Assembly (NCBI GenBank): GCA_035465695.1
Contig: DATIVR010000017.1
Span: forward strand, 71-64,070
DNA length: 64,000 nucleotides
Direction of reading: 5' to 3'
Origin: Gammaproteobacteria bacterium
Lineage (GTDB): Bacteria > Pseudomonadota > Gammaproteobacteria > Natronospirales > REEB76
This document shows, piece after piece, positions 27,694-48,079 of the stretch. How positions within the stretch are numbered: the first letter of the stretch is position 1; every line of letters begins with the position of its first letter. The notes beneath the pieces were generated by a model. It did no database searches. It saw only the letters and a list, made by a program, of their open reading frames with translations, and had not been told where the DNA came from. The translations under genes were made by a program, and so were the position numbers.

Positions 27694-29559
27694 GTGAAGA
27701 ACGCCCGCCAACTCTCGGTGGTCTACGCAGCACTGCTCGCCCTGGCGGGCTTCATCCTGCTCATCTATCTCTCGGTGCATACCCAACTCGAGATCACCAA
27801 TGTCGCGGCGGTGGTGGGTTTCACGCTGTTCGGCATCGTGGTGGTGCTGTTCGGTTTCCCGGCACCCCACGTCGGTCATGTCTCGCTGGACCGTGTGGTG
27901 CAGATCTCCAGCATCTTGATCTTCGGCACGCTCCCGGCGGCATGGATCGCCGGCATATCGTCGGTGATCTGGCCGTTTCTGCCTTGGGGCGCGAACCGCA
28001 ACCAGGACCTGCGCCTCACCATACTGCGCGCCGGCCACAACTCCGGGATGATCATCTTCCTGATCCTGGCCATCGGCGGCGTCTATCAGCTGCTGGGCGG
28101 CCACGTGCCCCTGCTCGAACTCGATCTCCACGACGGCGTGCTGATGCTGTTCCTGGCCATCGGCATGCAGCTCCTGAACATGTGCTTCGTAGCGGTGATC
28201 GCGTGGCTGGAAGGCTTCGATTGGAGGAAAGCCTTCGGTTTCTTCAGCTTCGCGGTGGACATCGCCGCGGTGCCACTCGCAGTGTTCACCGCCATCGTCT
28301 ACAACCGGCTGGAGGCGCCGGTCTTCTGGCTGTTCCTGATGGTGCTGTTCCTCATCATCTGGATCGTGAAGCATATCGCCGACACCCAGACCACGCTCGC
28401 GGTCAAGAAGGACGAACTGGAGGCGCTGAACCGTGTGGGCCGCGCCGTGTCCGGAGCGCTGGTGCTGGATGACCTCATCGAGTTGATCTTCCGGGAGAGC
28501 AAGAACCTCTTGGAATCCGACTCCTTCATGCTCGCGCTGTACGACGAATCCACCCGTGAACTGGATATCCGGTTGCATCACAACCGCGCCGGGCGCCAGG
28601 CTACGCGCCGCCGCCGCTTGGGCGAGGGCATCTTGGGCTGGGTGGTCGCCAGCAACAAGCCGGTGTTCATCAGCGACTGGAACTCGGACGAGAGTGAATT
28701 CAAGAACATGATGATCCACATCGGTGACACGCCGCAGACGCAGTCGTTCATCGCCGTGCCTATCACCTATCGCGAGAGGGTATTGGGCGTGCTCTCGGTG
28801 CAGGGGTATACACCCTACATGTTCAGCGATTCGCAGTTCGAGTTGGTGGTCACGTTCGCGGGCCAGGTAGCGGTAGCCATCGCCAACGCGCGGCTGTTCG
28901 AGGAACTGGAGAAGGGCCGCAATGAACTGGAGCGTCGGGTGGTGGAACGCACCCACGATCTGGCGCTGCAGAAGGACGAGCTGCATGCCCTCACCGAGTC
29001 CCTGCGCAGCGCCAACCGCGAGAAGGAGGAACTGCTGGGGCGCCTGCAGCAACAAGCCTCGGAGCTGGAACGCCAGAGCCGCGAGGACGGGTTGACCGGA
29101 CTCTACAACCGCCGGTACCTCGACAGCCGGCTGGATTTCGAAGTGAAGCGCGCCGAGCGCTACAACCGTCAGATCGCCCTGGCCATGGCCGATGTCGACC
29201 GCTTCAAAGGCGTCAACGACCAGCACTCGCACATGGTCGGTGATGACGTGTTGCGTGCCATCGCCAACATCCTGCGCACCCAGTGCCGTTCCATCGACAT
29301 CATCGCCCGCTATGGCGGCGAGGAATTCCTGCTCTGCTTCCCGGAGACGGCCAAGGACAATGCCGTGAATGTCTGCGAGAAGATCCGCAGGCACGTGGAG
29401 GAATATGACTGGTCACGCCTGCAGCCGGGGCTGCATGTCACCCTGAGTGTGGGAGTGGCGGCGGCGCCCCCGGCGTACGATGTCGATGCCTTGATCGCAG
29501 CGGCAGACGAGAAGCTGTACGACGCTAAACGCGGCGGAAGAAATCGCGTGTGCGCTTGA
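27694..29559 (+). CDS. Polytopic membrane sensor - GAF - GGDEF diguanylate cyclase
   Basis: GTG start. An N-terminal region of about 250 aa with about 8 hydrophobic helices. GAF region (GILGWVVASNKPVFISD...). Coiled-coil linker. GGDEF domain with RYGGEEF and GLYNRRY. Confidence 0.88.
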   Translation: MKNARQLSVVYAALLALAGFILLIYLSVHTQLEITNVAAVVGFTLFGIVVVLFGFPAPHVGHVSLDRVVQISSILIFGTLPAAWIAGISSVIWPFLPWGANRNQDLRLTILRAGHNSGMIIFLILAIGGVYQLLGGHVPLLELDLHDGVLMLFLAIGMQLLNMCFVAVIAWLEGFDWRKAFGFFSFAVDIAAVPLAVFTAIVYNRLEAPVFWLFLMVLFLIIWIVKHIADTQTTLAVKKDELEALNRVGRAVSGALVLDDLIELIFRESKNLLESDSFMLALYDESTRELDIRLHHNRAGRQATRRRRLGEGILGWVVASNKPVFISDWNSDESEFKNMMIHIGDTPQTQSFIAVPITYRERVLGVLSVQGYTPYMFSDSQFELVVTFAGQVAVAIANARLFEELEKGRNELERRVVERTHDLALQKDELHALTESLRSANREKEELLGRLQQQASELERQSREDGLTGLYNRRYLDSRLDFEVKRAERYNRQIALAMADVDRFKGVNDQHSHMVGDDVLRAIANILRTQCRSIDIIARYGGEEFLLCFPETAKDNAVNVCEKIRRHVEEYDWSRLQPGLHVTLSVGVAAAPPAYDVDALIAAADEKLYDAKRGGRNRVCA

Positions 29560-32500
29560 GCAGACCCGGGCTCAGTGCCCCCAGCTCATCCCCCGGCATG
29601 AGGTTCAGGTTCTCGCGCTGAAACAGCGCATCGGCTTTCTGTGCGTCCAGGGCCGACGAGAACAGTTTGCCCTGAGCCGCCCGGCAACCGAGGCTATCCA
29701 GGATATGCAGTTGTTGGCGGGTCTCCACCCCCTCCGCGACGGTGTTCATCCCGAGCTCGCGCGCGAGGTCGATGATGGTGCGCACGATCGCGGCGTGCTT
29801 CGCATTCTGTTCCATGTCCATGACGAAGCTGCGGTCGATCTTGAGGGTATCCAACGGTAGTGCCGCGAGATAGCTCAAGGACGAGAACCCGGTCCCGAAG
29901 TCGTCCAGATGCAGCGCCACACCTAGGTTCCTCAGGCGTCGCAGGCTATGCTCGGCGGCCTTGGGGTTCTCGAGGAATACGGTCTCGGTGATCTCGAGAT
30001 GCAGGCCCGAGGCAGGCAGGCCGCTCTCCAGCAGCGCGCTATTCACCCGCTGCGGCAGTCCGGCGTACATGAACTGCTTGTGGGCAAGGTTGACCGCCAC
30101 TGTGAGCTCGCGGGCCTGCGGGTGACGGGTGCGCCAGGAATACAGCTGGCGGCAGGCCTCTTCCAGCAGCCACCAGCCCATGGGCAAGATCAGGCCGGTC
30201 TCTTCCGCCACGCCCAGGAACTCGTCCGGTCCCAACAGGCCTCGGACCGGGTGCTGCCAGCGCATCAGCGCCTCGAATCCCAGCAGCCGTCCGTGGGTGA
30301 CGGACACCAGCGGCTGGTAGTGCACGCGCAGTTCGCGGTTGTCCAGCGCTTGGCGCAACTCGGTCTCCACCCGTAGCCGCGCGCGCGCGCGTGCGTACAT
30401 GTCGTGATCGAAGACCACATAGCTCGCCTTGCCTGCCGCCTTGGCCCGGTACATGGCGGTATCGGCGTCGCGCAGCAGCTCCTCGGTGGTGGCGTAATCC
30501 GCGTGACCCGGTGCGATGCCGATGCTCGCGTTGGTGTAGATCTCGTTGTCGCCAAGGCGCACCGGATGCACCAGCTCCGTGAGGATCTGCTCCGCCACCT
30601 GCACCGCGTCCTCTGCATCACTGGTCTGGCCGACCAGCACCGTGAACTCGTCGCCGCCGTGGCGTGCCAGGATATCCCAAGGTCCCAGGCACTTCTTGAG
30701 GCGCTGCGCCACCTGCACCAGCAACTCATCGCCCGCGGCGTGGCCCAAGCTGTCATTCACCACCTTGAAGCTGTCCAAATCGATGAACAGGACCGCGTAG
30801 CCCGGCGCGCCCTTGGGGCGGCTGCGCTCCATGGCCTTGGCCAGCCGCTCGATGAACAGGGTGCGGTTGGGAAGCCCGGTGAGCGGGTCGTGAGTGGCGT
30901 TGTGACGCAGCTGGTTCTCGAAGCGGCGCTGTTCGGTGACGTCACGCACGGTACCGATCATCAGGCGCCGGTCGTCCTGGTCGATGATGCCTATGCTGTG
31001 GGTGACGTTGATGCGGGTCTTGCGGTCCTTCTGTATCAGTTCGGACTCGTAGTCGTTGGCCACTTCCTCGCCGCGCTGGCGCCGCTGAAAGCGATCGTCG
31101 GCGGCAGCCAGCTCCTCCGGCGGGAAGATGTCGCGGTAACTCATGCCGATGAGTTCGGCCTCGGTGTAGCCGAGCATGTCGGCGAAGGCACGATTCACGT
31201 AGGTGTAGTAACCGTTCTCGTTGATGAACACGCCGACCTGGGCGTGCCCCACCAGCAGGCGATAACGTTGCTCGGAGCGCTGCAGGGCGGTCTCGGCGCG
31301 TTTGCGTGCCGTGATATCCTGCAGCGAGCCTTCGTAATACGCGACGCTGCCATCCGGGTTGCGGACTACGCGCGCGCTCAAACTCACCCAGATGTCATTG
31401 CCATCGCGGCGGCGCAGCTCGACCTCGCGACCGGTGACGCGGCCGGTCCGCTCCAGGTCGGCATTGATGCGGCGGCGTTCGTCCGGGTCGCGATAGAGTT
31501 CGCCAATGTTCTTGATGCTGGTGAGCAAAGCGGCCGGATTTGGATAGCCGAAGATGTCCGCCAATGCCTGGTTGGCGCGCAGATACTGGCCGGTCGGCGT
31601 GCTCTGGTACATGCCGATCACGGCGTTCTCGAAGATGGCGCGGAACTTCTGCTCCGCCGCCAGGAGCGCCTCTTGGGTACGGCGTTCTTCGGTGATGTCG
31701 CGGATGGTGCCGGTGCTGGCGAGCTGGCCGTTCAAGGTGATGGGACCGGAGCGCACCGAGGCCAGAATGCGGGTCACCCCATCCTTCTTCAGCAGGTGCA
31801 CCTCATAGGCGCTCTTCTCCCATTGGCCGGCGCGGCGCTTGCGCCATAGGTCCTCCAGGAAGTCACGGTCTTCCGGCGCTATGAACTTCATGTACGGCGT
31901 GCCGGTCATCTCGGTGACGCCATATCCCAGCATATCGGCATAGGCCTGGTTCACGTACGTGTAGTTGCCTTCCTGGGTGACGAACACGCCGTCCTGGCTG
32001 TAATCGACCAGGGTGCGGTACTTCTCTTCCGACACCGAGAGCGCCAACTCCGCGGCATGGCGGGCGCTGATGTCGACGAAGCTGCCCTCGTAATACAGCA
32101 CTTCCCCAGACTCGCCCTTGACGGCGTGTGCACTCTCCGAGACCCACAGGTGGCTCCCGTCGCGGCGCAGCACTTCCAGGTGACAGCCCTCGAAGTAACC
32201 CTCCTTCCTCAGGAGCTCGGCGAGTTCGGCACGGGCTTCGGGATCCACATAGAGATCGCGTCCGAGGTCCTGAACCGACCGCATGAGATCCTGGGACGAG
32301 GCATATCCCAGGAGGCGCGCCATGGCGGGATTGACGTCGAGGAAGCGGCCATCCGGGCTGCTCTGGTAGATGGCTTCCACCGCGTGATCGAAGATCGCGC
32401 GGTAGCGGGTCTCGGCGCGACGCTGCGCGGCACGATCGGCCTCGCGTTGCCGGACGTCCTCGAGGATGCCGAGCACGTAGTGCTCGCCATCCACCGTCAC

Positions 32501-32791
32501 GACCGCGGCGATGAGCAGGCATTCGAACTCGCTGCCGTCGCGGCGGCGGTAGGTCATGGGTCGCGTCGTGATGTTGCGCTGCTCGATGAGTTCCTGCGCG
32601 AACTGCTCGCGCTTCGCGGCATCCCAGATGCCGAGTTCCACCGAGGTCTTGCCGATCAGGTGTTCGCGCGAGTAACCGAGCGCGCGCTCGAAGCTGTCGT
32701 TCACATCCACGAAGCGGCCATCGGCCAAGCGCGTGAGTGCGACCAGACTGGATGAGCCATTGAATGCACTGGCGAGTTTCACGCCTGGCAC
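29525..32791 (-). CDS. Multi-PAS - GGDEF - EAL c-di-GMP turnover protein
   Basis: 1088 aa with at least four PAS/PAC repeats (repeated ...Y.GS..DIT.R/E.R...). GGDEF domain with RHGGDEF. EAL domain with FEALMRW, DDFGTG and QG.LFS. Confidence 0.9.
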   Translation of the reverse strand: MPGVKLASAFNGSSSLVALTRLADGRFVDVNDSFERALGYSREHLIGKTSVELGIWDAAKREQFAQELIEQRNITTRPMTYRRRDGSEFECLLIAAVVTVDGEHYVLGILEDVRQREADRAAQRRAETRYRAIFDHAVEAIYQSSPDGRFLDVNPAMARLLGYASSQDLMRSVQDLGRDLYVDPEARAELAELLRKEGYFEGCHLEVLRRDGSHLWVSESAHAVKGESGEVLYYEGSFVDISARHAAELALSVSEEKYRTLVDYSQDGVFVTQEGNYTYVNQAYADMLGYGVTEMTGTPYMKFIAPEDRDFLEDLWRKRRAGQWEKSAYEVHLLKKDGVTRILASVRSGPITLNGQLASTGTIRDITEERRTQEALLAAEQKFRAIFENAVIGMYQSTPTGQYLRANQALADIFGYPNPAALLTSIKNIGELYRDPDERRRINADLERTGRVTGREVELRRRDGNDIWVSLSARVVRNPDGSVAYYEGSLQDITARKRAETALQRSEQRYRLLVGHAQVGVFINENGYYTYVNRAFADMLGYTEAELIGMSYRDIFPPEELAAADDRFQRRQRGEEVANDYESELIQKDRKTRINVTHSIGIIDQDDRRLMIGTVRDVTEQRRFENQLRHNATHDPLTGLPNRTLFIERLAKAMERSRPKGAPGYAVLFIDLDSFKVVNDSLGHAAGDELLVQVAQRLKKCLGPWDILARHGGDEFTVLVGQTSDAEDAVQVAEQILTELVHPVRLGDNEIYTNASIGIAPGHADYATTEELLRDADTAMYRAKAAGKASYVVFDHDMYARARARLRVETELRQALDNRELRVHYQPLVSVTHGRLLGFEALMRWQHPVRGLLGPDEFLGVAEETGLILPMGWWLLEEACRQLYSWRTRHPQARELTVAVNLAHKQFMYAGLPQRVNSALLESGLPASGLHLEITETVFLENPKAAEHSLRRLRNLGVALHLDDFGTGFSSLSYLAALPLDTLKIDRSFVMDMEQNAKHAAIVRTIIDLARELGMNTVAEGVETRQQLHILDSLGCRAAQGKLFSSALDAQKADALFQRENLNLMPGDELGALSPGLLKRTRDFFRRV

Positions 32792-37489: not shown

Positions 37490-38479
37490 TCAGTTCGGGA
37501 GCAGGTCCTTCACGCCCTCGCGCTCCTCGCGCAGCTCCTGTTCGGTAGCCTGCATGCGCTGTCTGGAGAAGTCGTCGATCTTCAGGTTCTTGACGATCTT
37601 CCACTGGCCCTTGCTACAGGTGACGGGATAGCCGTAGATGATGCCCTTCTTGATGCCGTAGCTGCCGTCGGCCGGCACCGCCATGCTCACCCAGTCGCCC
37701 TTCGGCGTGCCCAGCGCCCAATCGCGCATGTGGTCTATGGCGGCGGAGGCGGCGGAGGCCGCCGAGGAGGCGCCACGGGCCTTGATGATGGCCGCGCCGC
37801 GCTGCTGCACCGTGGGGATGAAGTCGCTCTCGATCCAGATCTGATCCACCAGTTTGGCGGCGAGTTTGCCCTTCACCGTCGCCGAACGGATGTCCGGATA
37901 CTGGGTGGAGGAGTGGTTGCCCCAGATCGTCATGCGCTTGATGTCAGTGACGTGCTTGCCGGTCTTGGCGGCAAGCTGCGACATGGCGCGATTGTGGTCC
38001 AGACGCATCATGGCGCTGAAGTTCTTGGCGGGGATGCGCGGCGCGTTGGAGGACGCGATCAAGGCGTTGGTATTGGCGGGATTGCCCACCACCAGCACCT
38101 TCACGTTCTTCTTCGCCGCGGCATTCAATGCCTTGCCCTGGGCGGAGAAGATCTTGGCATTCTCCAGGAGCAGGTCCTTGCGCTCCATGCCGGGGCCGCG
38201 CGGGCGCGCGCCCACCAACAGGGCATAGTCGGCATCTTTGAACGCCACTTCAGCATTATCGGAGGCCACCACCCCCGCCAGCAGCGGGTAAGCGCCGTCG
38301 TTCAGTTCCATCACCACGCCGTTCAGGGCGGGCAGGGCGGGGGTCACTTCCAGGAGTTGCAAGATCACGGGTTGCTTGGGGCCCAGCATGTCGCCGGCGG
38401 CGATGCGGAAGATGAGCTGGTAGCCGATCTGACCGGCGGCGCCGGTGACGGCGACCCGGACGGGTTTCTTGTTAGCCAT
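37490..38479 (-). CDS. mdh: Malate dehydrogenase (LDH-like type 2, NAD-dependent)
   Basis: 329 aa with [29 protein letters not shown] and IWGNHS, near co-linear with proteobacterial type-2 Mdh. Confidence 0.95.
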
Positions 38480-38728
38480 GCGGTGAGACTCCGTGAATGC
38501 TGTGCGAGGGATTGCGCCAGGCGCGAAAGGGACGCGATTTTAGCACCCGCCTCGCGGCTGACTTCATCGGGATCTTCGCGGCCGCCCGTGGGCAGGACGG
38601 GACGGCGGGTGTCATATGGGTGTTATGGCCGAACCGCGCGAACACCTGTTCTCGCGCACATAATCAGGCTGTCGTGGCGGCCGTCAGATCAATCTAACCC
38701 TTTGTTTTACAAGACTAAATTAAACAAT

Positions 38729-38743
38729 GGAGAAATTTTCTCC
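38729..38743. promoter_or_regulatory. Inverted repeat GGAGAA-ATT-TTCTCC just upstream of the candidate -35
   Basis: A 6-bp perfect arm pair in a 33% G+C line (hand count of 38701-38760), 8 nt upstream of TTGCTT. Possible regulator site. Confidence 0.3.
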
Positions 38744-38750
38744 AGGACAC

Positions 38751-38778
38751 TTGCTTTCCCTGTGTTTGGTGTTATAGT
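38751..38778 (+). promoter_or_regulatory. Candidate sigma70 promoter with extended -10 for the repeat-protein/GntR cluster
   Basis: TTGCTT (38751-38756), a 16-nt spacer ending in TGT, then TATAGT (38773-38778), giving TGnTATAGT. About 70 nt upstream of the ATG at 38847. Confidence 0.45.
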
Positions 38779-38846
38779 TAGCTACAACACCACTACGGAA
38801 CGGCCCCGCTATCGGGACCGCAGGACAGAGAGAGAAGGAGAGTGCC

Positions 38847-39398
38847 ATGAACATGAATCGCATCGCCAAAGTGAGCGCCGCCGTTGCCTTAGGACTGGGT
38901 CTCCTGGGGGCGAGCCTGGCTGCCGACGCCGCCAGCGCCCGCAGCACCGCTGCCCGGTCCCAGAGTGGCGGCGTCGGCTATTCGTCTGCCTCCAGCAAGG
39001 TGATCCACTTAAACACCATCCTGGTGACCCGCGCCGACGTGGCAGGGATCGCCGAGCCGAAGGCTCAAGCGGCTTATGGCCGCACGGCCTACCTCGGCAG
39101 CATCCAGGTCACTGCCAGCGACAGCGCCGAAGCACGGGCTGCGGCTGCCAGCGTCAAGCCGGGTACGGTGTTCCTGGGAGCGGTGGTGGTCACCGCCAAG
39201 GACAGCGAAGAAGCTCGTTATGCCGTGGCCCAGGCCGCTGCTCAGCCGGGCACCGCCTTCCTCGGCACCGTGGAAGTCACCGCCCGGGACACCAAGCCGG
39301 CTTTCGTAGGCAAGACCGTCGTCGCCCTGCGCCGCATCGGCCGCAACGCCATGGTCTCCATGATCAGCGCGCTGGCCTTCGTGCGGGTAGGCGGCTAA
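38847..39398 (+). CDS. Small exported protein with four tandem TonB-box-like repeats and a hydrophobic C-terminal tail
   Basis: Strong SD AAGGAG 6 nt before the ATG. Signal peptide MNMNRIAKVSAAVALGLGLLGASLAA. Repeats: VIHLNTILVTRAD.., AYLGSIQVTASDSAEAR.., VFLGAVVVTAKDSEEAR.., AFLGTVEVTARD... Tail: AMVSMISALAFVRVGG. Confidence 0.75.
   Translation: MNMNRIAKVSAAVALGLGLLGASLAADAASARSTAARSQSGGVGYSSASSKVIHLNTILVTRADVAGIAEPKAQAAYGRTAYLGSIQVTASDSAEARAAAASVKPGTVFLGAVVVTAKDSEEARYAVAQAAAQPGTAFLGTVEVTARDTKPAFVGKTVVALRRIGRNAMVSMISALAFVRVGG
39000..39290 (+). repeat. Four in-frame tandem coding repeats of 27-29 aa (core [FYH]L[GN]x[IV]xVT[AR]xD)
   Basis: Residues 52-148 of the 183-aa protein. The repeats are clear at protein level but diverged at DNA level, so the duplication is not recent. 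Confidence 0.8.
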
Positions 39399-39418
39399 GG
39401 TAGCGGCGGGCTACTCAA

Positions 39419-39432
39419 CTATAGAGCTATAG
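39419..39432. promoter_or_regulatory. CTATAG-AG-CTATAG repeat of a self-complementary hexamer upstream of the GntR gene (candidate operator)
   Basis: It lies in the 44-nt gap between the repeat-protein stop and the GntR ATG, preceded by a small GTAGC-GGCGG-GCTAC hairpin. Function is inferred. Confidence 0.3.
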
Positions 39433-39442
39433 CAGCGAGGCT

Positions 39443-39817
39443 ATGGACATGGAACCGAACTGGAGCGACAACCAACCGATATACCGCCAACTGCGGGATC
39501 GGGTGGTGGCCATGATCCTCGAGGACGCCCTTAAGGAGGGCGACCCGCTGCCCTCCGTGCGCTCGGTAGCGGCCGAATATCAGATCAATCCACTCACGGT
39601 GCTGAAAGGCTACCAGTCGCTGGTGGATGAAGGCCTGGTGGAGAAGCGCCGCGGCCTGGGCATGTTCGTGAAGGAAGGCGCCCGCAAGAGCCTGATGAAG
39701 AACGAGCGTGAGCAGTTCCTGAAGGCGGAATGGCCGCAGATCCTGCAGCGTATACAGAGATTGGGGCTGGACCTGATGGAACTGGCCCGCGAAGCGGAAA
39801 AAGGAAGCAAGTCATGA
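39443..39817 (+). CDS. GntR-family transcriptional regulator, short YtrA-type
   Basis: 124 aa. PIYRQLRDRVVAMILEDALKEGDPLPSVRSVAAEYQINPLTVLKGYQSLVDEGLVEKRRGLGMFV is a winged HTH, followed by a short C-terminal helical tail (YtrA subfamily size). An alternative ATG lies at 39449. Confidence 0.88.
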   Translation: MDMEPNWSDNQPIYRQLRDRVVAMILEDALKEGDPLPSVRSVAAEYQINPLTVLKGYQSLVDEGLVEKRRGLGMFVKEGARKSLMKNEREQFLKAEWPQILQRIQRLGLDLMELAREAEKGSKS

Positions 39818-40671
39818 GCATGCTAGTCAAGGCCAGCGGCCTCACCAAGCGCTACGGCACCACCACCGCGCTGGACCACGTGGATTTCCAGATCGAAGAA
39901 GGTCGCATCGTGGGCCTGATCGGCCCCAATGGCGCGGGCAAGACCACGGCACTCAAGGCCATCCTCGGCCTCACCGAATTCGAGGGCGAGCTGGACGTGT
40001 TGGGCCATGACCCGCGCCAGGCCCGGCACAACCTGATGCGCGACGTCTGCTTCATCGCCGACGTGGCGGTGCTGCCGCGCTGGCTCAAGGTCAGCAATGC
40101 CATCGATTACGTGGAAGCAGTGCATCCCGGCTTCAGCCGCGAACGCGCCATGCACTTCCTCGATCGCACCAAGATCAAGCAGAAGTCCAAGGTAGGCGAA
40201 CTCTCCAAGGGCATGGTCACGCAGCTGCATCTGGCGCTGATCATGGCCATCGACGTGAAGCTCCTGGTGCTGGATGAACCGACCCTGGGTCTCGACATCC
40301 TGTACCGCAAGGAGTTCTACACCAGCCTGCTCAATGATTATTTCGACGGCCATCGCACCATCCTGGTCACCACCCACCAGGTGGAAGAGATCGAGAAGAT
40401 CCTGACTCATCTGATGTTCATCGACGGCGGCCGCGTCACCTTGGACCGCTCCATGGACGAGGTGGCGGAGGAATACACCGAGGTGCTGGTGGCCCAGGAC
40501 AAGGCCGCCGCCGCCCAGGCCATGAAACCACTCTACGAGCGCGAGGTGTTCGGCAAGAAGCTGTTCCTGTTCGAGGGTGTCTCGCGGGAGGAACTGGCCA
40601 AGCTCGGTGAGATCCACACCCCGAGTGTCGCCGACATCTTCGTGGCGAAGGTCAAAGGAGGCATGCAATGA
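39814..40671 (+). CDS. ABC transporter ATP-binding protein
   Basis: Start at ATG 39814 overlaps the GntR stop (ATGA). Walker A GPNGAGKTT, signature-like LSKGM, Walker B LLVLDEP and H-loop TTHQ. Confidence 0.92.
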   Translation: MSMLVKASGLTKRYGTTTALDHVDFQIEEGRIVGLIGPNGAGKTTALKAILGLTEFEGELDVLGHDPRQARHNLMRDVCFIADVAVLPRWLKVSNAIDYVEAVHPGFSRERAMHFLDRTKIKQKSKVGELSKGMVTQLHLALIMAIDVKLLVLDEPTLGLDILYRKEFYTSLLNDYFDGHRTILVTTHQVEEIEKILTHLMFIDGGRVTLDRSMDEVAEEYTEVLVAQDKAAAAQAMKPLYEREVFGKKLFLFEGVSREELAKLGEIHTPSVADIFVAKVKGGMQ

Positions 40672-41627
40672 AAGCCGGTGCCATGCAGGTCAACAAGATG
40701 CTCATCCGCCGGGAGTTCTGGGAGAACCGCTCGCTGTGGATCGTGTCGGTGGCGGTGGCAGGCATCCTCACCTTGCTCTCCGTCTACATGCTGGTGGCCA
40801 TACTCATCGGCCACAACCAGACCGTAAACAATGTGGATTTCGCCAACGGCGCGCACTTCCAGATAGACCAGCTGCCGGACTTTCGCGATGCCGACTCCGA
40901 TGCGGCCAACGCCTTCATGCGTATCGGTACCCTGACGCTGGGAGCGATGTTCAGCTTCATCATGCAGATCGTGGTGTTCTTCTACCTGCTGGACAGTCTG
41001 TACGCGGACCGCCGCGACCGCAGCATCCTCTTCTGGCGCTCCATGCCGGTGTCGGACGCCCGCACCGTGCTGGCCAAGCTCGCCACCGCCCTGCTCAGCG
41101 TCACCGCCATCACCTTCGTGGTGACCATCGCCTTCGAGTTGGTGCTGGTGGTGTTGGGGCTGATCCTGGGGTCGGTGATGGGCACGCATCCCTTCGCGCT
41201 GTTGGCCCATCCCTGGGCCTTCATCAGCGCCTGGTTGTTGCTGGCCTATGGGCTGATCGTCGCGGCCATCTGGTACCTGCCGTTCTACGGGTGGTACATG
41301 CTGGCCTCTAGCTGGGCCAAGAAGGCTCCGTTCCTGTGGGCGGTGCTGGTGCCGGTGGGCATCATGGGCGCCGAGGGCTGGGTGTTCCATACCGCCAACT
41401 TCGCCCGGATGATCTGGGGCTACAAGCAGCGCTGGCTCACCCTGGCTTTCAACGTCGACCCGCTACACATGAAACACAGCCTGGACGACGTGACCCTGGG
41501 CTCCGTGTTCACCATCGGTAACCTGGGAGAGCTGTTCGCGAGCCCCAGCCTGTGGGTCGGTCTCGCGGTGGCAGCGGCATTCATCTACGGCGCCATCTGG
41601 CTGCGCCGCAAGCGCAACGAGATCTGA
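40668..41627 (+). CDS. Polytopic membrane protein, probable permease partner of the ABC ATPase (ABC-2-like)
   Basis: Its ATG overlaps the ABC stop (ATGA, 40668-40671). About 6 hydrophobic helices. The LYADRRDRSILFWRSMPVS segment resembles the conserved loop of ABC-2 permeases. The family call is tentative. Confidence 0.68.
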   Translation: MKAGAMQVNKMLIRREFWENRSLWIVSVAVAGILTLLSVYMLVAILIGHNQTVNNVDFANGAHFQIDQLPDFRDADSDAANAFMRIGTLTLGAMFSFIMQIVVFFYLLDSLYADRRDRSILFWRSMPVSDARTVLAKLATALLSVTAITFVVTIAFELVLVVLGLILGSVMGTHPFALLAHPWAFISAWLLLAYGLIVAAIWYLPFYGWYMLASSWAKKAPFLWAVLVPVGIMGAEGWVFHTANFARMIWGYKQRWLTLAFNVDPLHMKHSLDDVTLGSVFTIGNLGELFASPSLWVGLAVAAAFIYGAIWLRRKRNEI

Positions 41628-41658
41628 TCTCTCAATATATAGATAACGGAGCCCATAC

Positions 41659-41985
41659 ATGCGACGCATCCTCGTGACCCTGACTCTCTGTGCGGCCGTG
41701 GCCAACCTGGGCGGCTGTGTGCTGGCCCTCGGCAACGGCGGCGGCGACGATTCCAACTGGAGTTCCTCGGAACATCGGGACACCAGCCTGGCCCGCGCCA
41801 TCCGCTCCGGCCTGGACGCTGACCCGGCGACGCACGAAGCGGACCTCAGCGTCTCGACCGACGGCGGCCGCGTGTATCTGCACGGCACGGTGCATGCGCC
41901 TGAGACGCTGGAGAAAGCGGTACAGATCGCGCTGGCCAACCCGGATACCACCAGCGTGCGTTGTCATATCGATGTGATCCGCTGA
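41659..41985 (+). CDS. BON-domain lipoprotein
   Basis: 108 aa with lipobox NLGGC. LARAIRSGLDADPATHEADLSVSTDGGRVYLHGTVHAPETLEKAVQIA is a BON-domain pattern. GGAG SD 7 nt upstream. Confidence 0.8.
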   Translation: MRRILVTLTLCAAVANLGGCVLALGNGGGDDSNWSSSEHRDTSLARAIRSGLDADPATHEADLSVSTDGGRVYLHGTVHAPETLEKAVQIALANPDTTSVRCHIDVIR

Positions 41986-42010
41986 CGACCTCGGCTCGGG
42001 AGTTGCGCCC

Positions 42011-42760
42011 ATGAAGCACATCGCCGCTTTGTTGTTGCTATCGGCCCTGCCCCTGGCCGCCCATGCAGAGCCGACGTCCTCCATGCCGCGGATCCTGAAG
42101 TCGGAACTGGCTGCCACCGGCATCAACGGCGTGGCCTTGGAAGTGGGGGTGGGTGAACTGCACGTCACCACGTCCAATGACGACAAGGTGCATGTGCAAG
42201 TGACCTTGCGCCACAAGGAACGTCAGTTCCTGTGGTTCTTCCACTGGATGGACGGTGGCAGCGCGAGCCAGATCGCCGCGGCCACGATCCAACAGAAGCG
42301 CGGCGGTGACCGCCTGACGTTGTCGCTCAGCTATCCCCACAGCGGCGATGACGACATGAAGCAGGAATGGGATGTACAGATACCACCACGCCTGAGGCTC
42401 GACGCCACCATGGAGGTGGGCGACCTCGGGGTGGATGGCGTGAGCGGTGGCGTGACTGCCAGGCTCAATGTGGGTGAGGTGAGCATCGATGTGCCGCAGG
42501 GCAGCATCGACGCCAGCGTGGATGTGGGCGAGATCCGCGCCAAGACCGCCACCGCCAAACGTGGGAAGATCCAGCTCATCACTAACATCGGCGACGCGAT
42601 GCTGGTGATACAGGGTTCCGAGAGCGGCTATCATGACCACGGCGGTCTTGGCACCCGGGTGTCCTTGGACGGTTCCGGTCCCGACGCAGTGCAACTCAAG
42701 GTCAACATCGGCGACGTGTCCTTGCACGTGACGCCGGCGGATAAGGAAATAACCAGATGA
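42011..42760 (+). CDS. Exported Toastrack/DUF4097-like protein (paralog A)
   Basis: Signal peptide ...LPLAAHA. Repeated G[DE][VIL].[VI] rungs (VGELHVTT, VGDLGVDG, VGEVSIDV, VGEIRAKT, IGDAMLVI, IGDVSLHV). Confidence 0.7.
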   Translation: MKHIAALLLLSALPLAAHAEPTSSMPRILKSELAATGINGVALEVGVGELHVTTSNDDKVHVQVTLRHKERQFLWFFHWMDGGSASQIAAATIQQKRGGDRLTLSLSYPHSGDDDMKQEWDVQIPPRLRLDATMEVGDLGVDGVSGGVTARLNVGEVSIDVPQGSIDASVDVGEIRAKTATAKRGKIQLITNIGDAMLVIQGSESGYHDHGGLGTRVSLDGSGPDAVQLKVNIGDVSLHVTPADKEITR

Positions 42761-43572
42761 GACAGGTCGTCCTCGCATGTGGTGCAGTGGCGTTGGCGTT
42801 CGGGATGGCGGGATGCAGCACGCGCGACGCGCCTAGCGAGCCCGTGACCGTCACCGCCGATATCCCGGCCGCCGGTCTCCAGCATCTCAAATTCGACGGC
42901 ACTTCCGGCGACACCAAGATCGGCATATCCCCCGATGATGCCGTGCATGTGAAACTCGTGCTCCAACAGCAGGAGCGACGCATCCTGGGCATGCCCGTGG
43001 CCAGTGATGCCACCCTCAGGGACGTGGAGCGCGCGAAGATAGCCCAGGACAGGAAAGGTGATCTGCTCACCGTGACCGCCAGCTATCCCTCGGGAAGCAG
43101 CCACGATAGTGACGTGAAGACGCAGTGGACCATACAGGTCCCGGCCCGCTTCGGTGTGGACAGCACCATGAAGGCGGGGCGCATGATCATCGAGGGCATG
43201 ACGGGCGGCGTGAAGGCGCAGCTCGCGGCCGGCGAAGTGGTGATCCACGTGCCATCCGGACCCATCTATGGCCACCTCAGCGCCGGCAGGTTGCATGTGA
43301 TCTCGGATGCCTTGGAGCCGCGCAACGTGAAGGTGAAGAGCACCTTCGGCCTGGCGGTCCTCAGTCTGCATGGGGAGTATTACGGCCCGCCGCCGGAGAA
43401 GGATGACGGCTTCTGGAGTCATCTGCATATGTTCGGCAACACCCTGAACGAGCATGCAGGCGGCAAGGACGACGCCGACCTGGAAGTCACTGCCGGTCTC
43501 GCCGACCTGCGCTTCGGGCCGCTGGGCGACAAGGAAATACGCCGCGACATGTTCACGGAAGATATGGACTGA
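42757..43572 (+). CDS. Toastrack/DUF4097-like lipoprotein (paralog B)
   Basis: Its ATG overlaps the paralog A stop (ATGA, 42757-42760). Lipobox GMAGC. Co-linear with paralog A (DDAVHVKLVLQQQERRIL vs DDKVHVQVTLRHKERQFL; GDLLTVTASYPSG..WTIQVPARF vs GDRLTLSLSYPHSG..WDVQIPPRL). Confidence 0.7.
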   Translation: MRQVVLACGAVALAFGMAGCSTRDAPSEPVTVTADIPAAGLQHLKFDGTSGDTKIGISPDDAVHVKLVLQQQERRILGMPVASDATLRDVERAKIAQDRKGDLLTVTASYPSGSSHDSDVKTQWTIQVPARFGVDSTMKAGRMIIEGMTGGVKAQLAAGEVVIHVPSGPIYGHLSAGRLHVISDALEPRNVKVKSTFGLAVLSLHGEYYGPPPEKDDGFWSHLHMFGNTLNEHAGGKDDADLEVTAGLADLRFGPLGDKEIRRDMFTEDMD

Positions 43573-43578
43573 TCCCGC

Positions 43579-43598
43579 GCAGCCGCGCCCGCGGCTGC
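43579..43598 (+). other. GC-rich hairpin GCAGCCGC-GCCC-GCGGCTGC between paralog B and the serine hydrolase gene
   Basis: An 8-bp perfect stem in the 48-nt gap, followed by CATTCATT (weak U-tract). Possible partial terminator or RNA processing element inside the cluster. Confidence 0.3.
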
Positions 43599-43620
43599 CA
43601 TTCATTGGGGAGACCGGGAG

Positions 43621-45504
43621 ATGATGCGCCGATTCGGCACCCTGCTGCTGTGCTGTGTGTTGCCGTCGGCGGTGCTGGCTGCGGCGCCCACCCCGCCGCC
43701 ACAGGACATCCCGTCCTTGCAGAGACAACTGGATAAGTTCCGGGCGGACGCCGGCGTCCCGGGGGTGGGCGTGGCGCTGTTCGACCGTAATGGCGTCACT
43801 TGGGCGGGCGGCCTGGGTTATGCCGATGTGGCGAAGCAGCAGCCGGTCACCGTCGATACGTTGTTCCGCGCCGGTTCCATCACCAAGGGTTTCGTGGCGG
43901 TGGCGCTGCTGCAACTGGTGGACCAAGGCAAGGTGCGCCTCGACGCGCGCCTGAAGGACATCGCGCCGGAGATCCCGGTGGATAACCCCTGGGAGGACAC
44001 CGACCCCGTCACCCTGGCAGAGGTGCTGGAGCACACCGCCGGTTTCGACGACATGCATTTCCCGCGGCTCTACAACTTCCACGAGCCGGCCGACATCCCG
44101 CTGCTCACGGTGATCCAACGCAGCAAGTCCGAACTCAGGGTGCGCTGGCGCCCCGGCACGCGCACCTCATATTCCAATCCCGACTATCTCATCGCCGGCT
44201 ACCTCATCGAGAAATTCACCGGCGAGCGCTACGAACAGTACGTCACCGACCATGTGCTGCGACCACTGGGGATGGCGCAGGCCAGTCTGGCGCCCGATCC
44301 CGCGTCGGTACCGGGGCTCGCGCAAGGTTACGAAGGCCAGCCGCAACAGCCCATCAGACCGGTGCCGATCTACCTGAGACCCGCCGGAGCGCTGGATGTC
44401 TCGCCCACTGAACTCGCGCACTTCGGCATCATGCTGCTGGATCGCGGCGAATGGCAGAACCAGCCGTTCCTCTCCGCTGCCAGCGTCACGCGCATGGAGA
44501 CTCCGGAGACCGGCGGTGGCGCACGTCACGGCCTCGACTATGGCTACGGCCTCGCCAACTACACGAGCTATATCGGCGCCGACGAGTTCCATGGCCATGA
44601 CGGCGGTATCGACGGGTTCATATCCCGCTATGCCTACGCCCCGGATCAGGGTCTCGGGTTCGTACTGATGGTGAACACCGGCAGCCCCGGCAAGTTCATG
44701 CGTGAGGCCTCCGGGCTCTTGGCGGGCTATCTCATGCGCGGCCAGCCCACGCCGGTGATGCCCACCCCGGTGCCGGCCTCCGCCACCACCCTGGCGCAGA
44801 TGAGTGGTTATTATCGCGAGCGAAATCCACGCAACCAGGTGCTGGCAGTGGGCGATTACCTGTTCGGCGTGGCACACGTCTTTCCGGACGGAAAAGGCGC
44901 CCTCCGGGTCAAAGGCCTGTTCGAGGATTCGGTCACGTTGCTGCCGGCGGGCGAAGGCCTGTGGCGCGCCGAGAGACACAGCGGCGCCGACACCGTCAGT
45001 TACGTGGATAAGGACGGCGACGAGGTGCTGGATCGCGAGCCCAATGCCAGCGGCGAATATCTGGTGAAGACCAGCTGGGTCTCAGCTTACCTGCCGACGT
45101 CGCTGGTCTTCGCCGCGCTGCTGCTCATGCTCTCCAGCGTGCTGTTCGCGCCGGTATGGGGCTTCCGCAAGCTCATCGGACACATGCGCGGGGCAACCCA
45201 CTGGAGCGTGCGGGTGCTGCCGCTCCTGGCCAGTCTCGCGCTAGCCTGCATGCTGGGCGGCGTCATCAGCATCGCGCCCATCGAACTCGGTGTGGCCAAT
45301 GCCAGGACCGTGTCGTTCTTCGTCTTCTCGCTGCTGTTCGCGGCCTTGAGCGTCGCTGCCGTGGTGCAAGCGGTGCGTTCCTATCGGTGGGACCTGAACC
45401 GCTGGATGCGCTGGCATTCGACGGCTGTAGCGGCGAGCTGCTTCGGTGTCACGCTGTTCCTGGCCTATTGGGGGATGATCGGCCTTCGGCTTTGGGCTTT
45501 CTAA
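43621..45504 (+). CDS. Serine hydrolase of the beta-lactamase/PBP (class C-like) family with a C-terminal 4-helix membrane anchor
   Basis: Signal peptide. SxxK = SITK in FRAGSITKGF. YxN = YSN. GHDGGIDGF takes the place of the third motif. The last ~160 aa contain four hydrophobic helices. Confidence 0.85.
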   Translation: MMRRFGTLLLCCVLPSAVLAAAPTPPPQDIPSLQRQLDKFRADAGVPGVGVALFDRNGVTWAGGLGYADVAKQQPVTVDTLFRAGSITKGFVAVALLQLVDQGKVRLDARLKDIAPEIPVDNPWEDTDPVTLAEVLEHTAGFDDMHFPRLYNFHEPADIPLLTVIQRSKSELRVRWRPGTRTSYSNPDYLIAGYLIEKFTGERYEQYVTDHVLRPLGMAQASLAPDPASVPGLAQGYEGQPQQPIRPVPIYLRPAGALDVSPTELAHFGIMLLDRGEWQNQPFLSAASVTRMETPETGGGARHGLDYGYGLANYTSYIGADEFHGHDGGIDGFISRYAYAPDQGLGFVLMVNTGSPGKFMREASGLLAGYLMRGQPTPVMPTPVPASATTLAQMSGYYRERNPRNQVLAVGDYLFGVAHVFPDGKGALRVKGLFEDSVTLLPAGEGLWRAERHSGADTVSYVDKDGDEVLDREPNASGEYLVKTSWVSAYLPTSLVFAALLLMLSSVLFAPVWGFRKLIGHMRGATHWSVRVLPLLASLALACMLGGVISIAPIELGVANARTVSFFVFSLLFAALSVAAVVQAVRSYRWDLNRWMRWHSTAVAASCFGVTLFLAYWGMIGLRLWAF

Positions 45505-45515
45505 GGAGATTATTG

Positions 45516-46397
45516 ATGCAAGCTGTCATCCCCATGGTGAATCGGCGACCCGGGCTGCTTTGGGCCATCCTGCAGTTCCCACTGACCCGCATCGTGATCG
45601 GCTTCCTGGCTATCGGTGTATGGGTCGCTGCGATCCAGATCGGCACCAAGCTGGCACACGTAGCACCGCGTACTCCACTGCATGCGCTCCTGGGCCTGCT
45701 CATACCCGTCGGCGTGCTGGTGATCTACGTGGTGTTCGTTCGTCTCCTGGAGAACCGGGCCGTGGCAGAGCTCGCACCCCACGGCGCGCAGCGGTTCGCG
45801 GCCCGCGGCATCCTCGTAGGGGCCGGGCTTTTCTGCCTGAGCATGCTGGTGATGAAGCTGTATGGGGCCTGGACCTATCTGGGTGTCGCACCCATCTCCA
45901 ACCTGGCCTATCCGTTCATCTCGGCATTCATCGCGGGCATCATGGAGGAGGCAGTGACACGGGGCATCCTGTTCCGCATCATCGAGGAGAGCCTGGGGAG
46001 CTGGATCGCCCTGGTCATCTCGGCGGCGATCTTCGGGTTGCTGCATGTCTTCAATCCCGGCGCCAGCGTGATCAGTACCGCAGCCATCGCCCTGGAAGCA
46101 GGCGTGTTGCTGGCCGCCGCCTACATGTATACCCGCAGCCTGTGGTTCGTCATGGGCCTGCACTTCGCCTGGAACTTCACCGAGGGCGGCATCTTCGCGA
46201 CGTCCGTGTCCGGCGGCCCTACCGAGGGCGTGATCCGGGTGGGCTTCGTCAGCGGCAAGGACTGGCTCACCGGCGGCCAATTCGGCCCCGAGGCCTCGCT
46301 GCCGGCAGTGCTGATTTGTCTCGCGGCGGGTATAGCGTTCATCATATTGAGCGTGCGTCGCGGCCGGATCGTCAGGCCCTTCTGGAACCGAAAGTAA
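45516..46397 (+). CDS. CPBP-family intramembrane glutamic endopeptidase (CAAX protease/Abi family)
   Basis: Start placed at ATG 45516 with AAGGAG 7 nt upstream. The track ORF 45156 extension overlaps the hydrolase gene. Motifs EEAVTR (EExxxR), FGLLH (FxxxH) and HFAWN (HxxxN). Confidence 0.85.
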   Translation: MQAVIPMVNRRPGLLWAILQFPLTRIVIGFLAIGVWVAAIQIGTKLAHVAPRTPLHALLGLLIPVGVLVIYVVFVRLLENRAVAELAPHGAQRFAARGILVGAGLFCLSMLVMKLYGAWTYLGVAPISNLAYPFISAFIAGIMEEAVTRGILFRIIEESLGSWIALVISAAIFGLLHVFNPGASVISTAAIALEAGVLLAAAYMYTRSLWFVMGLHFAWNFTEGGIFATSVSGGPTEGVIRVGFVSGKDWLTGGQFGPEASLPAVLICLAAGIAFIILSVRRGRIVRPFWNRK

Positions 46398-46410
46398 GCT
46401 GGAGCTTCCC

Positions 46411-46896
46411 ATGCCCTCCTTCGATGCCGTCTCCAAGGTCGACGTCGCCGAGCTGACTAATGCAGTCGACCAGGCCAGCCGGGAGATCTCCCAACGTTAC
46501 GATTTCAAGGGTTCGTCCGCCGCCATCGAGCGCGCCGAAGACATGCTCACGGTGTTCGCGGACAGTGAGTTCCAGCTCAAGCAGGTGACGGACATCCTCT
46601 ACGCCAAGGCCGCCAAGCGCGGTATCGACGTGGCCAGCTTCGACCCGCAGAAGATCGAAGCCATCAGCGGCGACAAGGCCAAGCAGGTGGTCAAGGTGAA
46701 GCAGGGTATCGAGAAAGAGCTGGCCAAGAAGATGGTCAAGCTGGTGAAGGACAGCGGCCTAAAGGTGCAGGCCGCCATCCAGGGCGATGAGCTGCGGGTT
46801 ACCGGCAAGAAGAAGGATGACCTGCAGGCCTGCATGGCGCTGTTCCGCCAGTCGAAGCTGGAACAGCCGATCCAATACACCAACTTCCGCGACTAG
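46411..46896 (+). CDS. yajQ: YajQ-family nucleotide-binding protein (UPF0234)
   Basis: 161 aa. MPSFDAVSKVDVAELTNAVDQASREISQRYDFKGS...QYTNFRD is near full-length co-linear with YajQ. GGAG SD. It starts 13 nt after the CPBP stop. Confidence 0.92.
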   Translation: MPSFDAVSKVDVAELTNAVDQASREISQRYDFKGSSAAIERAEDMLTVFADSEFQLKQVTDILYAKAAKRGIDVASFDPQKIEAISGDKAKQVVKVKQGIEKELAKKMVKLVKDSGLKVQAAIQGDELRVTGKKKDDLQACMALFRQSKLEQPIQYTNFRD

Positions 46897-46897
46897 C

Positions 46898-48079
46898 TCA
46901 GAACCGCACCTCGACCGCAGCGGCGGCACGTAGCGCCTTCGCCACCGCGGCTGCGATGCTCGTGTCGCGGGCCAGCGCCACGCCCATGCGGCGGTGACCC
47001 CGGATCTCCGGCTTGCCGAAGAGCCGCAGCATGGTATCCGGTTCCTGGAGTGCCGTATCCACATTCCTATATAGAGGGCCATCGGAATCGCCATGAGGCA
47101 GGATCACCGCCGAGGCGGAGGGTCCCAGCTGGCGGATCACCGGGATGGGCAGTCCCAGGATCGCGCGGGCATGCAGCGCGAACTCCGAGAGATCCTGCGA
47201 GATGAGCGTGACGAGACCGGTGTCGTGAGGCCGCGGTGAGACCTCGCTGAACCACACCGCATCGCCTTTCACGAAGAACTCCATGCCGAAGATACCGCGG
47301 CCCCCCAGGTCATCGGAGATCAGCTTGGCCATGCGTTGCGCTTCCGCCAGTGCTTTCTCGCTCATGGGCTGGGGCTGCCAAGACTCCCGGTAGTCGCCAT
47401 CCTCCTGGCGATGACCGATGGGCGCACAGAAACTGGTGCCGCCGGAATGACGCACCGTGAGCAGGGTGATCTCGTAATCGAAATCGATGAAGCCCTCCAC
47501 GATCATGCGGCCCTTGCCGGTGCGGCCGCCCTGCTGGCCGTAGTCCCAGGCATGCTGGATGTCCGCATCGGTCTTCACCACGCTCTGGCCCTTGCCGGAG
47601 GAGCTCATCACCGGCTTCACCACGCAAGGCATGCCGATCTCATGCACTGCGGCGCGGAAGCCCTCGAAGCTGTCGGCGAACCTGTAAGGCGAAGTGGGGA
47701 CCTCGAGTGTCTCAGAGGCAAGACGGCGGATGCCCTCCCGATCCATGGTGAGTCGCGCGGTGCGGGCGGTGGGGATCACGGTCCAGCCTTCGGCCTCAAG
47801 TTTCAGCAACTCCGGCGTGGCGATGGCCTCGATCTCGGGGACGATGTAGTGGGGCTTCTCCAGCTCCACCAGGCGCCGCACCTCAGCGCCATCCAGCATG
47901 TTGATGACGTGGCTGCGATGCGCCACCTGCATGGCCGGCGCGCGCGCATAGCGGTCCACGGCGATCACTTCCACGCCGAAACGCTGCAGCTCGAGCGTCA
48001 CCTCCTTGCCGAGCTCACCCGAGCCCAGCAGCATCACACGAGTGGCATTCGGGGTCAGCGGCGTACCAATCTCAACCAT
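46898..48079 (-). CDS. purT: Formate-dependent phosphoribosylglycinamide formyltransferase (GAR transformylase 2)
   Basis: 393 aa with [16 protein letters not shown], an ATP-grasp region and the PurT-typical C-terminus. Confidence 0.93.

Follow-up and report, generated by a model that had tools for sequence, protein, structure and literature searches.

The 64,000-nt stretch analyzed here (the window; positions 71 to 64,070 of contig DATIVR010000017.1) is part of a contig of an uncultured gammaproteobacterial metagenome-assembled genome. It carries ten plus strand genes between 38847 and 46896, which a preliminary description had grouped into one undescribed envelope module under a GntR regulator. 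The region from 38768 to 43572 is probably a self-repressed operon of the class that combines an HpaR1/YtrA-type repressor with an ABC-2-type exporter, and the last three genes of the array, encoding an S12 hydrolase, a CPBP protease and YajQ, lie outside it. The seven genes of the proposed operon encode a secreted repeat protein (gene 1), the GntR repressor, an ABC ATPase, a permease, a BON lipoprotein and two Toastrack-like proteins (TR1 and TR2). Judged by gene order, GntR, ATPase and permease form an invariant unit and the envelope partners vary by lineage. The core is a variant of an operon type already described by comparative genomics. New are the variant with BON and two secreted Toastracks, the disordered repeat protein encoded by the first gene, and the spread of the operator across phyla.

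The comparison covered 92 related loci of about 20 kb. Genes in the neighborhoods of TR2 homologs and permease homologs, and in 80 GTDB species loci found with the permease alignment, were labelled by phmmer, iterated hidden Markov model (HMM) searches and clustering. A 24-bp palindrome, GGTGTTATAGTTAGCTACAACACC, of the form GGTG-N16-CACC was located at 38768..38791. Its inner 22-bp palindrome (GTGTTATAGTTAGCTACAACAC, 38769-38790) lies 56 nt 5' of gene 1. It occurs as a single copy in the 64-kb window, where 0 matches were expected by chance. Of the 69 GTDB species loci that were scored, 61 matched the consensus of the inner 22-mer, GTGTTATAGTTAACTATAACAC, at 17 or more of 22 positions, and the best of 104 control windows reached 14 of 22. 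A degenerate operator pattern was found once in each of 55 loci out of 88, and every site whose position was compared lay 5' of the GntR operon. By these sequence matches the operator palindrome is conserved across at least four phyla.

The distance between operator and GntR was 174 nt or less in 18 of the 61 loci and 270 nt or more in the other 43, which leaves space for an intervening gene. In the loci inspected, the intervening gene of the window's clade was gene 1. Other Gammaproteobacteria had small proteins related to its product, with a MPYYSF tail or LxxIVVTP repeats, and Acidobacteriota had a secreted protein of about 190 aa that is unrelated. The secreted protein of about 190 aa found in this interval in other phyla had no Pfam match. 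Gene 1 is counted as part of the regulated unit because the operator sits 5' of gene 1, with room for a gene in those 43 loci. Within the operator TATAGT (38773-38778) is likely the -10 element, and TTGCTT (38751-38756), separated from it by a 16-nt spacer, may be a weak -35 element. Both were read by eye. A consensus scan for promoters and terminators gave counts close to the shuffled expectation and called neither this operator-embedded promoter nor a hairpin at 43579.

The reported binding motif of YtrA in Xanthomonas citri, obtained by chromatin immunoprecipitation with exonuclease digestion, is GGTG-N16-CACC (Zhou et al. 2017, as cited in PMC6746942). A second motif reported for HpaR1/YtrA is GTGT-N15-20-ACAC (PMC6430473). 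The window operator has the same form as the first of these, a likeness of sequence form only.

The GntR repressor (39443..39817, plus strand) is a 124-aa protein. Pfam GntR matched residues 14-76, the winged helix-turn-helix at the N-terminus, with 48.2 bits against a cut-off of 27. Full-length alignments were obtained to YtrA-type structures of 113-134 aa (3tqn, 3ic7, 3neu, 2du9/2ek5, 4r1h and 4ham) and also to 6sbs. The alignment to 3tqn, a solved structure of 113 aa, was full-length at E=9e-40, making it a ready and close structural template for the regulator clade. From these alignments the protein is placed in the YtrA subfamily, in which a short C-terminal dimerization module of about 50 aa replaces the ligand-binding domain. 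The genetic context is that of the subfamily, with an ATGA overlap between the GntR and ATPase genes and with the upstream palindrome in the 61 of 69 scored loci given above.

The GntR of the window has 62% identity to its counterpart in the module of a Stenotrophomonas locus (L064). The latter protein begins with MTDIQWS, the same residues as those specified by the primer published for cloning HpaR1 (XC_2736), and the HpaR1 reverse primer contains a CCATGA stop/start overlap. By this comparison GntR is a probable ortholog of Xanthomonas HpaR1/YtrA. HpaR1, named YtrA in X. citri, is an autorepressing regulator of the YtrA subfamily with global effects on extracellular polysaccharide, the type III secretion system, motility and stress tolerance. 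The adjoining ABC transporter is not mentioned in the HpaR1/YtrA studies drawn on here, and a literature search on the locus tags XAC1542-1545 returned no papers.

The ABC ATPase (39814..40671, plus strand, 285 aa) overlaps GntR by ATGA and matches Pfam ABC_tran. Its best NCBIfam similarities were to PmtA, DrrA and NodI, all below cut-off. The ABC-2-type permease (40668..41627, plus strand, 319 aa) has six transmembrane (TM) helices in a TM scan. Alignment columns showed an invariant cytoplasmic motif, YADRRDRSxLFWxSxP, and Pfam gave weak ABC2_membrane matches only. The permease had 1785 homologs, and GTDB species genomes from several phyla contained at least 587 such loci. Adjacency within the GntR-ATPase-permease triad was found in 74 and 71 of the 80 species loci, the second figure being that for the ATPase next to the permease. 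The shortfall is at least partly due to truncated contigs, which account for several of the loci where ATPase and permease do not adjoin. The triad was present in Gammaproteobacteria, Alphaproteobacteria, Acidobacteriota, Verrucomicrobiota and Gemmatimonadota. Autoregulation of an envelope module by GntR, as put forward in the preliminary description, is supported at the sequence level by this adjacency and by the conserved operator upstream of gene 1.

The partners of the triad differed among lineages. DUF2884 was found in Rhodanobacter and Stenotrophomonas, and DUF3187 with Dps in Steroidobacteraceae. In Acidobacteriota and Verrucomicrobiota the downstream partners were DUF4386 and DUF2306 membrane proteins, with the same operator retained; examples of partner genes in these phyla, the secreted protein of about 190 aa included, are at 7847-8416 in L074, 10871-12327 in L050 and 11877-12641 in L081. 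This variety bears on the proposal that the ABC pair works with BON and the Toastracks in envelope biogenesis or lipid handling and does not export toxic compounds. BON domains have been described as phospholipid-binding, the locus has a BON lipoprotein as well as two beta-helical proteins in the periplasm by which membranes could be bridged or shielded, and no drug-efflux family scored above its NCBIfam cut-off. Most triad loci, however, lack BON and Toastrack and carry the unrelated DUF4386, DUF2306, DUF3187 with Dps, or DUF2884 instead, and a role in envelope biogenesis is thus considered improbable.

The BON lipoprotein (41659..41985, plus strand, 108 aa) has the lipobox LGGC and scored 40.4 bits against Pfam BON (cut-off 27). 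TR1 (42011..42760, plus strand, 249 aa) has a signal peptidase I signal peptide. TR2 (42757..43572, plus strand, 271 aa) has the lipobox MAGC and is the last core gene. TR1 and TR2 share 31% identity (E=9e-32) and are therefore paralogs. The Toastrack label of the preliminary description had no direct match in Pfam: TR1 gave only Toast_rack_N at E=0.046, TR2 gave none, and nothing was found at E≤0.01. Relaxing the limit to E≤10 added essentially no assignment for either protein. A search of the TR family profile against PDB sequences was also of no use. The label is upheld by fold and by transitive homology. An AlphaFold2 model of TR2 from 42 homologs (predicted local distance difference test, pLDDT, 84) consists of all-beta repeats. 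Its best Foldseek match was 4qrk (E=2.6e-10, TM-score normalized to the target 0.64), followed by 3pet, 3jx8, 3lyc, 4opw and 4ygu, and these are "putative adhesin" folds of the DUF4097/DUF2807 type. The iterated TR HMM, which includes TR1, reached proteins in L064 and L059 (E=1e-25 and 3e-38), which in turn scored 37.5 and 45 bits against Pfam DUF4097 (cut-off 22.9). By the predicted fold and these profile links, Toastrack is the right label for TR1 and TR2.

Seventy-two species loci had enough sequence downstream of the permease to be scored. A Toastrack followed the permease in 16, a BON lipoprotein in 10 and both in seven, and two Toastracks were present in four. The block of gene 1, GntR, ATPase, permease, BON, TR1 and TR2 was kept in L001, L003, L006, L007, L009-L012 and L091. 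From this distribution BON and the Toastracks are lineage-restricted accessories. They and gene 1 might be simple syntenic neighbors, retained by descent in one clade with no functional coupling to the triad, as most of the loci with Toastrack or BON share a frame of mdh...yajQ-purT-kefB. Several features of the locus speak against such a history. TR2 overlaps TR1 by ATGA, the gaps in the core are 25-44 nt, and the operator is 5' of gene 1, not 5' of GntR. Toastrack or BON is also found directly 3' of the permease in several gammaproteobacterial lineages, with Toastrack in this position in differently flanked Stenotrophomonas loci and in the published Xanthomonas operon. Synteny without coupling is accordingly regarded as highly improbable.

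Gene 1 (38847..39398, plus strand) encodes a secreted protein of 183 aa and is the first gene 3' of the operator. It contains four repeats, G[ST]x[FY]LGxhxVT[AP]xDxx[DE]A[RK], and a conserved C-terminal tail, ALxFxRxGG. The repeat cores are encoded at 39009-39029, 39093-39113, 39174-39194 and 39261-39281. No match was found in Pfam, NCBIfam or PADLOC, and even at E≤10 Pfam returned essentially nothing. All 35 homologs were from uncultured gammaproteobacterial metagenome contigs and had two to four repeats each. The mean pLDDT of the AlphaFold2 model was 40.7, and the product is predicted to be disordered by itself. By sequence comparison gene 1 represents a new secreted repeat-protein family heading the regulated unit. 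The preliminary description had called it a TonB-box-repeat protein. The four-fold motif (LNTILVT, LGSIQVT, LGAVVVT and LGTVEVT) is real, is beta-strand-like and is conserved in the homologs. The textbook TonB box is DTxVVTA, and the likeness of GAVVVTA to it is a resemblance only. No TonB-dependent receptor for the comparison was found among window open reading frames (ORFs) of 550 aa or more.

The junction between gene 1 and GntR (39399..39442, plus strand; TAAGGTA...ACTA...GCTATAGCAGCGAGG) includes the GntR ribosome-binding site and was strongly conserved in a by-eye alignment of 12 relatives. In a sister clade (L008, L013, L014 and L019) the same junction has a stem of 6-7 bp with a tetraloop of the UUCG/UACG type. 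It may serve as an internal promoter, in processing or in the coupling of translation.

The physical layout of the array was as previously described. The ORF list contained the ten plus strand ORFs at 38847-46896. ATGA overlaps were read directly in the sequence at 39814-39817, 40668-40671 and 42757-42760, and the remaining six intergenic gaps, from ORF ends, were 44, 31, 25, 48, 11 and 13 nt. The leader (38690-38800) has a G+C content of 36.9%, compared to 63.6% for the window. The purT gene (46898-48079, minus strand) converges on YajQ. The region is flanked by mdh (minus strand) upstream and by purT and a kefB-like gene (both minus strand) downstream. Six families scored above Pfam threshold among the ten products (GntR, ABC_tran, BON, Beta-lactamase, Rce1-like/CPBP and DUF520/YajQ), with YajQ also above its NCBIfam cut-off, in agreement with the earlier labels for the regulator, the ATPase, the BON protein, the serine hydrolase, the CPBP protease and YajQ. 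The signal peptides, lipoboxes and TM helices noted earlier were likewise identified by reading of the sequence and a hydropathy scan.

The earlier claim that all ten genes form one module did not survive the comparison of loci. Under that explanation the array would be a single envelope-damage or toxin-immunity module under GntR control, with the hydrolase, CPBP and YajQ as integral parts. All ten genes are co-directional, with gaps of 11-48 nt and good ribosome-binding sites, and this holds for the window as well as for the two contigs closest to it (L089 and L090). The YtrA regulon of Streptococcus salivarius includes a CaaX/CPBP protease, and an interaction between YajQ (XC_3703) and HpaR1 (XC_2736) of Xanthomonas was recorded in a yeast two-hybrid screen (PMC4199771). 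These points are set against the gene order of the relatives, in which the block from gene 1 to TR2 co-occurs within the window's clade and the remaining three genes vary or are inverted. The hydrolase, CPBP and YajQ have no operator copy of their own in the 64-kb window, and relatives have one site per locus. A ten-gene module is therefore judged very unlikely.

The slot after TR2 is variable, holding an S12 hydrolase, a secreted retropepsin-like protein, both or neither. The hydrolase was present in L001/L002, L007, L011 and L089-L092 and absent from L003, L005, L006, L009, L010 and L012, and a single-Toastrack sister clade (e.g., L008) has a glutathione S-transferase and DUF6632 in the slot. 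By this distribution the S12 hydrolase is variable cargo inserted past the end of the operon. In the window it is the eighth gene (43621..45504, plus strand), encoding a serine hydrolase of the S12/beta-lactamase family (Pfam Beta-lactamase, E=5e-65). SITK and YSN motifs are present, and four TM helices lie at the C-terminus. The PDB relatives were 2qmi, alkaline D-peptidase, R61 and ClbP, over the catalytic domain only. The likeness to ClbP lies in a periplasmic S12 domain followed by C-terminal TM helices (catalytic domain E about 1e-18). Similarity to ClbP is low, however, and the window protein has four TM helices against three, an extra domain of about 80 aa and no biosynthetic cluster nearby. 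The retropepsin-like protein is secreted, is about 298 aa long with a weak Pfam Asp_protease_2 match, and follows TR2 or the hydrolase (L001 12824-13720, L006 13069-13965, L012 about 13052-13984, L092 4568-5461).

A hairpin, GCAGCCGC-GCCC-GCGGCTGC, with eight G-C-rich pairs lies at 43579..43598 on the plus strand. It had been suggested that it splits the array into two sub-operons. The hairpin is real and sits exactly at the boundary between the core and the variable genes, which fits such a split. It has no U tract, its centroid energy was -17.1 kcal/mol, and with z=-0.8 it does not stand out from shuffled sequences. On these grounds it was dropped as a terminator and kept as a boundary marker. 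The hairpin sequence is not conserved, but L007 and L009 have other GC hairpins after TR2. Such hairpins fit with TR2 as the ancestral end of the operon.

The CPBP intramembrane protease (45516..46397, plus strand; EExxxR, FxxxH and HxxxN motifs, Pfam match) and YajQ (46411..46896, plus strand; Pfam DUF520 and NCBIfam, a family that binds cyclic di-GMP, c-di-GMP) are also non-core. In L001, L005, L006, L007, L009 and L092 this pair is on the minus strand, co-directional with purT-kefB, and L092 retains this ancestral orientation at 70% TR2 identity. All nine YajQ genes and the one CPBP gene in the 80 species loci were also on the minus strand. The pair was found on the plus strand in relatives only in L089 and L090, which are independent assemblies with 85% TR2 identity. 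Since all relatives other than these two have the opposite strand, the ten-gene array is explained by a recent inversion of about 1.4 kb; since two independent assemblies share the plus orientation, the inversion is real and not an assembly artefact. No convincing inverted repeats flanking the inversion were found. From the orientation in relatives, CPBP and YajQ ancestrally belong to the purT-kefB side. A bacteriocin-immunity locus centered on CPBP was rejected, as the relatives show no linkage of CPBP. Loss of the retropepsin-like gene goes together with the inversion. In most relatives kefB-purT-CPBP-YajQ resembles a co-directional unit.

Within the window's clade yajQ is an immediate or near neighbor of the HpaR1-type operon throughout. 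Taken with the two-hybrid result this adjacency is a lead, and it can equally be inherited synteny.

The claim that the module was undescribed had to be withdrawn for the core. Ravi et al. (2024) list an operon GNTR-HTH->ABC-ATPase->TM->Toastrack->DUF2884, with Xanthomonas XAC1545 as the example, from "various Proteobacteria and Bacteroidetes," and HpaR1/YtrA and its motif have been studied experimentally in Xanthomonas, the attached transporter being known as a catalog entry only. Stenotrophomonas loci L027 and L064 have exactly this order, with DUF4097 and DUF2884 confirmed by Pfam. The window shares with the Xanthomonas-type operon the first four gene types in the same order (regulator, ATPase, permease, Toastrack, with BON intercalated before the Toastracks), the YtrA-type regulator with its ATGA overlap to the ATPase, and an operator of the GGTG-N16-CACC form. 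It differs in having a BON lipoprotein in place of DUF2884, for which no window protein gave a Pfam match, and an extra first gene encoding the repeat protein. It also has two divergent Toastracks exported by signal peptide or lipobox, whereas the Xanthomonas-type Toastrack is annotated as TM-anchored.

A match in architecture is MbrRAB of S. salivarius, in which the MbrR repressor is captured by the ATP-bound MbrA ATPase (Damoczi et al., bioRxiv 2026, preprint). In both cases a YtrA-family repressor is encoded with its own ATPase and permease, with autoregulation in MbrRAB and proposed here, and a palindromic operator of the 22-nt type lies at the own promoter. The positions critical for MbrR, G3 and C20, match GTG...CAC of the window operator. 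MbrRAB is Gram-positive, has bacteriocin substrates and lacks periplasmic accessories, and its regulon extends, by separate promoters, to further ABC pumps, a flotillin and a CaaX protease. The likeness for the window is one of genetic architecture only.

In ytrABCDEF of Bacillus subtilis and pmtR-pmtABCD of Staphylococcus aureus, too, exporter genes of the ABC-2 type are preceded by a gene for a YtrA-type repressor. These systems have two ATPases and at least two permeases, compared to one of each together with secreted accessories in the window. The best NCBIfam similarities of GntR and the ATPase were to PmtR (53.6 bits, cut-off 200) and PmtA (126 bits, cut-off 350). These scores are far below the equivalog cut-offs, and the window genes are therefore not ytr/pmt orthologs. 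Psp/Lia systems (LiaF, LiaG, PspC-Toastrack) resemble the window in having a beta-helical domain of the DUF4097 type beside a regulator related to membrane stress; the window Toastracks differ in being periplasmic. No PspA/LiaH, PspC, LiaI, LiaF-TM, two-component system or sigma factor was found by Pfam and NCBIfam in the ten products or the flanking genes, and a Psp/Lia system was rejected for lack of Psp or Lia components.

In the mechanism proposed for the operon, a dimer of the 124-aa GntR would bind the GGTG-N16-CACC palindrome where it overlaps the -10 element upstream of gene 1. Binding would keep all seven genes off. GntR, ATPase and permease would form the engine, with BON, the Toastracks and gene 1 as lineage-specific periplasmic accessories. 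The transporter may expel or sense a membrane-active compound or an envelope perturbation, and it would probably act as an exporter derepressed by stress or by its substrate. By analogy with MbrR-MbrA of S. salivarius, derepression may occur when the working ATPase captures the repressor. Speculatively, BON and the Toastracks might be periplasmic scaffolds or sensors, and any role given to gene 1 is just as speculative.

A related explanation gives the transporter chiefly a sensing role, in which the ABC pair, together with BON, Toastrack and gene 1 in the periplasm, would report the state of the envelope to an HpaR1-like global regulator of many genes elsewhere in the genome. The breadth of control by HpaR1/YtrA in Xanthomonas is in line with this, the regulator has no ligand-binding domain of its own, and Ravi et al. 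(2024) propose Toastrack as a scaffold for membrane-proximal signaling. Against a global regulator stands the single operator copy of the 64-kb window and of every 20-kb locus, within the part of the genome in view. As sensing in MbrRAB is export, the sensor explanation overlaps with the self-repressed exporter operon; as a separate explanation it is unlikely. A further extension would have HpaR1/YtrA-type regulators of Gram-negative phyla captured at their own ABC transporter, with BON, the Toastracks and gene 1 supplying the input in this lineage, the gene 1 motifs docking onto TonB or onto the open beta-sheet edges of the Toastracks, and YajQ perhaps adding c-di-GMP input. Transcription would in this way be coupled to the state of the outer envelope. 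This extended scheme appears quite unlikely.

Several points weigh against the self-repressed operon as proposed. Its boundaries are drawn from spacing and conservation alone, and repressor sequestration is known from one Gram-positive species, described in a preprint. Orthology to HpaR1 is supported by seven primer-encoded N-terminal residues and the shared motif, not by full-length HpaR1. Xanthomonas HpaR1 is both a global activator and a global repressor and is modulated by guanosine tetraphosphate (ppGpp); given this, control may not run through the transporter. The permease is below every Pfam threshold and gives no indication of a substrate. The frequencies of Toastrack and BON in species loci (16 and 10 of 72) point to dispensable accessories, and their co-occurrence may in part be inherited gene order, with most of the relatives that carry them sharing the mdh...purT/kefB synteny.

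HpaR1/YtrA is a long-studied virulence regulator of Xanthomonas. The regulator, its operator and the ABC pair form one unit that is conserved from Gammaproteobacteria to Acidobacteriota and Verrucomicrobiota, and the match in architecture to a Gram-positive capture circuit gives a testable hypothesis for envelope sensing by Gram-negative HpaR1-type regulators. The locus also carries a caution, as a recent inversion can yield a tight co-directional array that is not a conserved operon.

By the PADLOC scan the array is not a catalogued anti-phage defense system. The HMM and defense-catalog searches confirmed the six Pfam families and left gene 1 unmatched, and the PADLOC scan of the ten proteins gave nothing specific. 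The ATPase had generic P-loop matches only, GntR had a weak Csa3 match (E=0.0026), and nothing matched seven of the nine non-ATPase proteins, among them gene 1, the permease, BON and both Toastracks. Rfam gave no match at E≤1 over 38300-47200. Between mdh and gene 1 a further palindrome with a 7-bp stem, TGGAGAA-ATT-TTCTCCA (38728-38744), resembles a terminator of the minus strand and is not conserved, being absent from all 92 related loci. On the minus strand purT and the kefB-like gene share 8 nt (48072-48079), an overlap also found in L001 and L092. About 10 kb upstream of the array are genes for c-di-GMP turnover, a GAF-GGDEF gene at 27694-29559 (plus strand) and a PAS-GGDEF-EAL gene at 29525-32791 (minus strand), a context that may be relevant to the c-di-GMP-binding YajQ.

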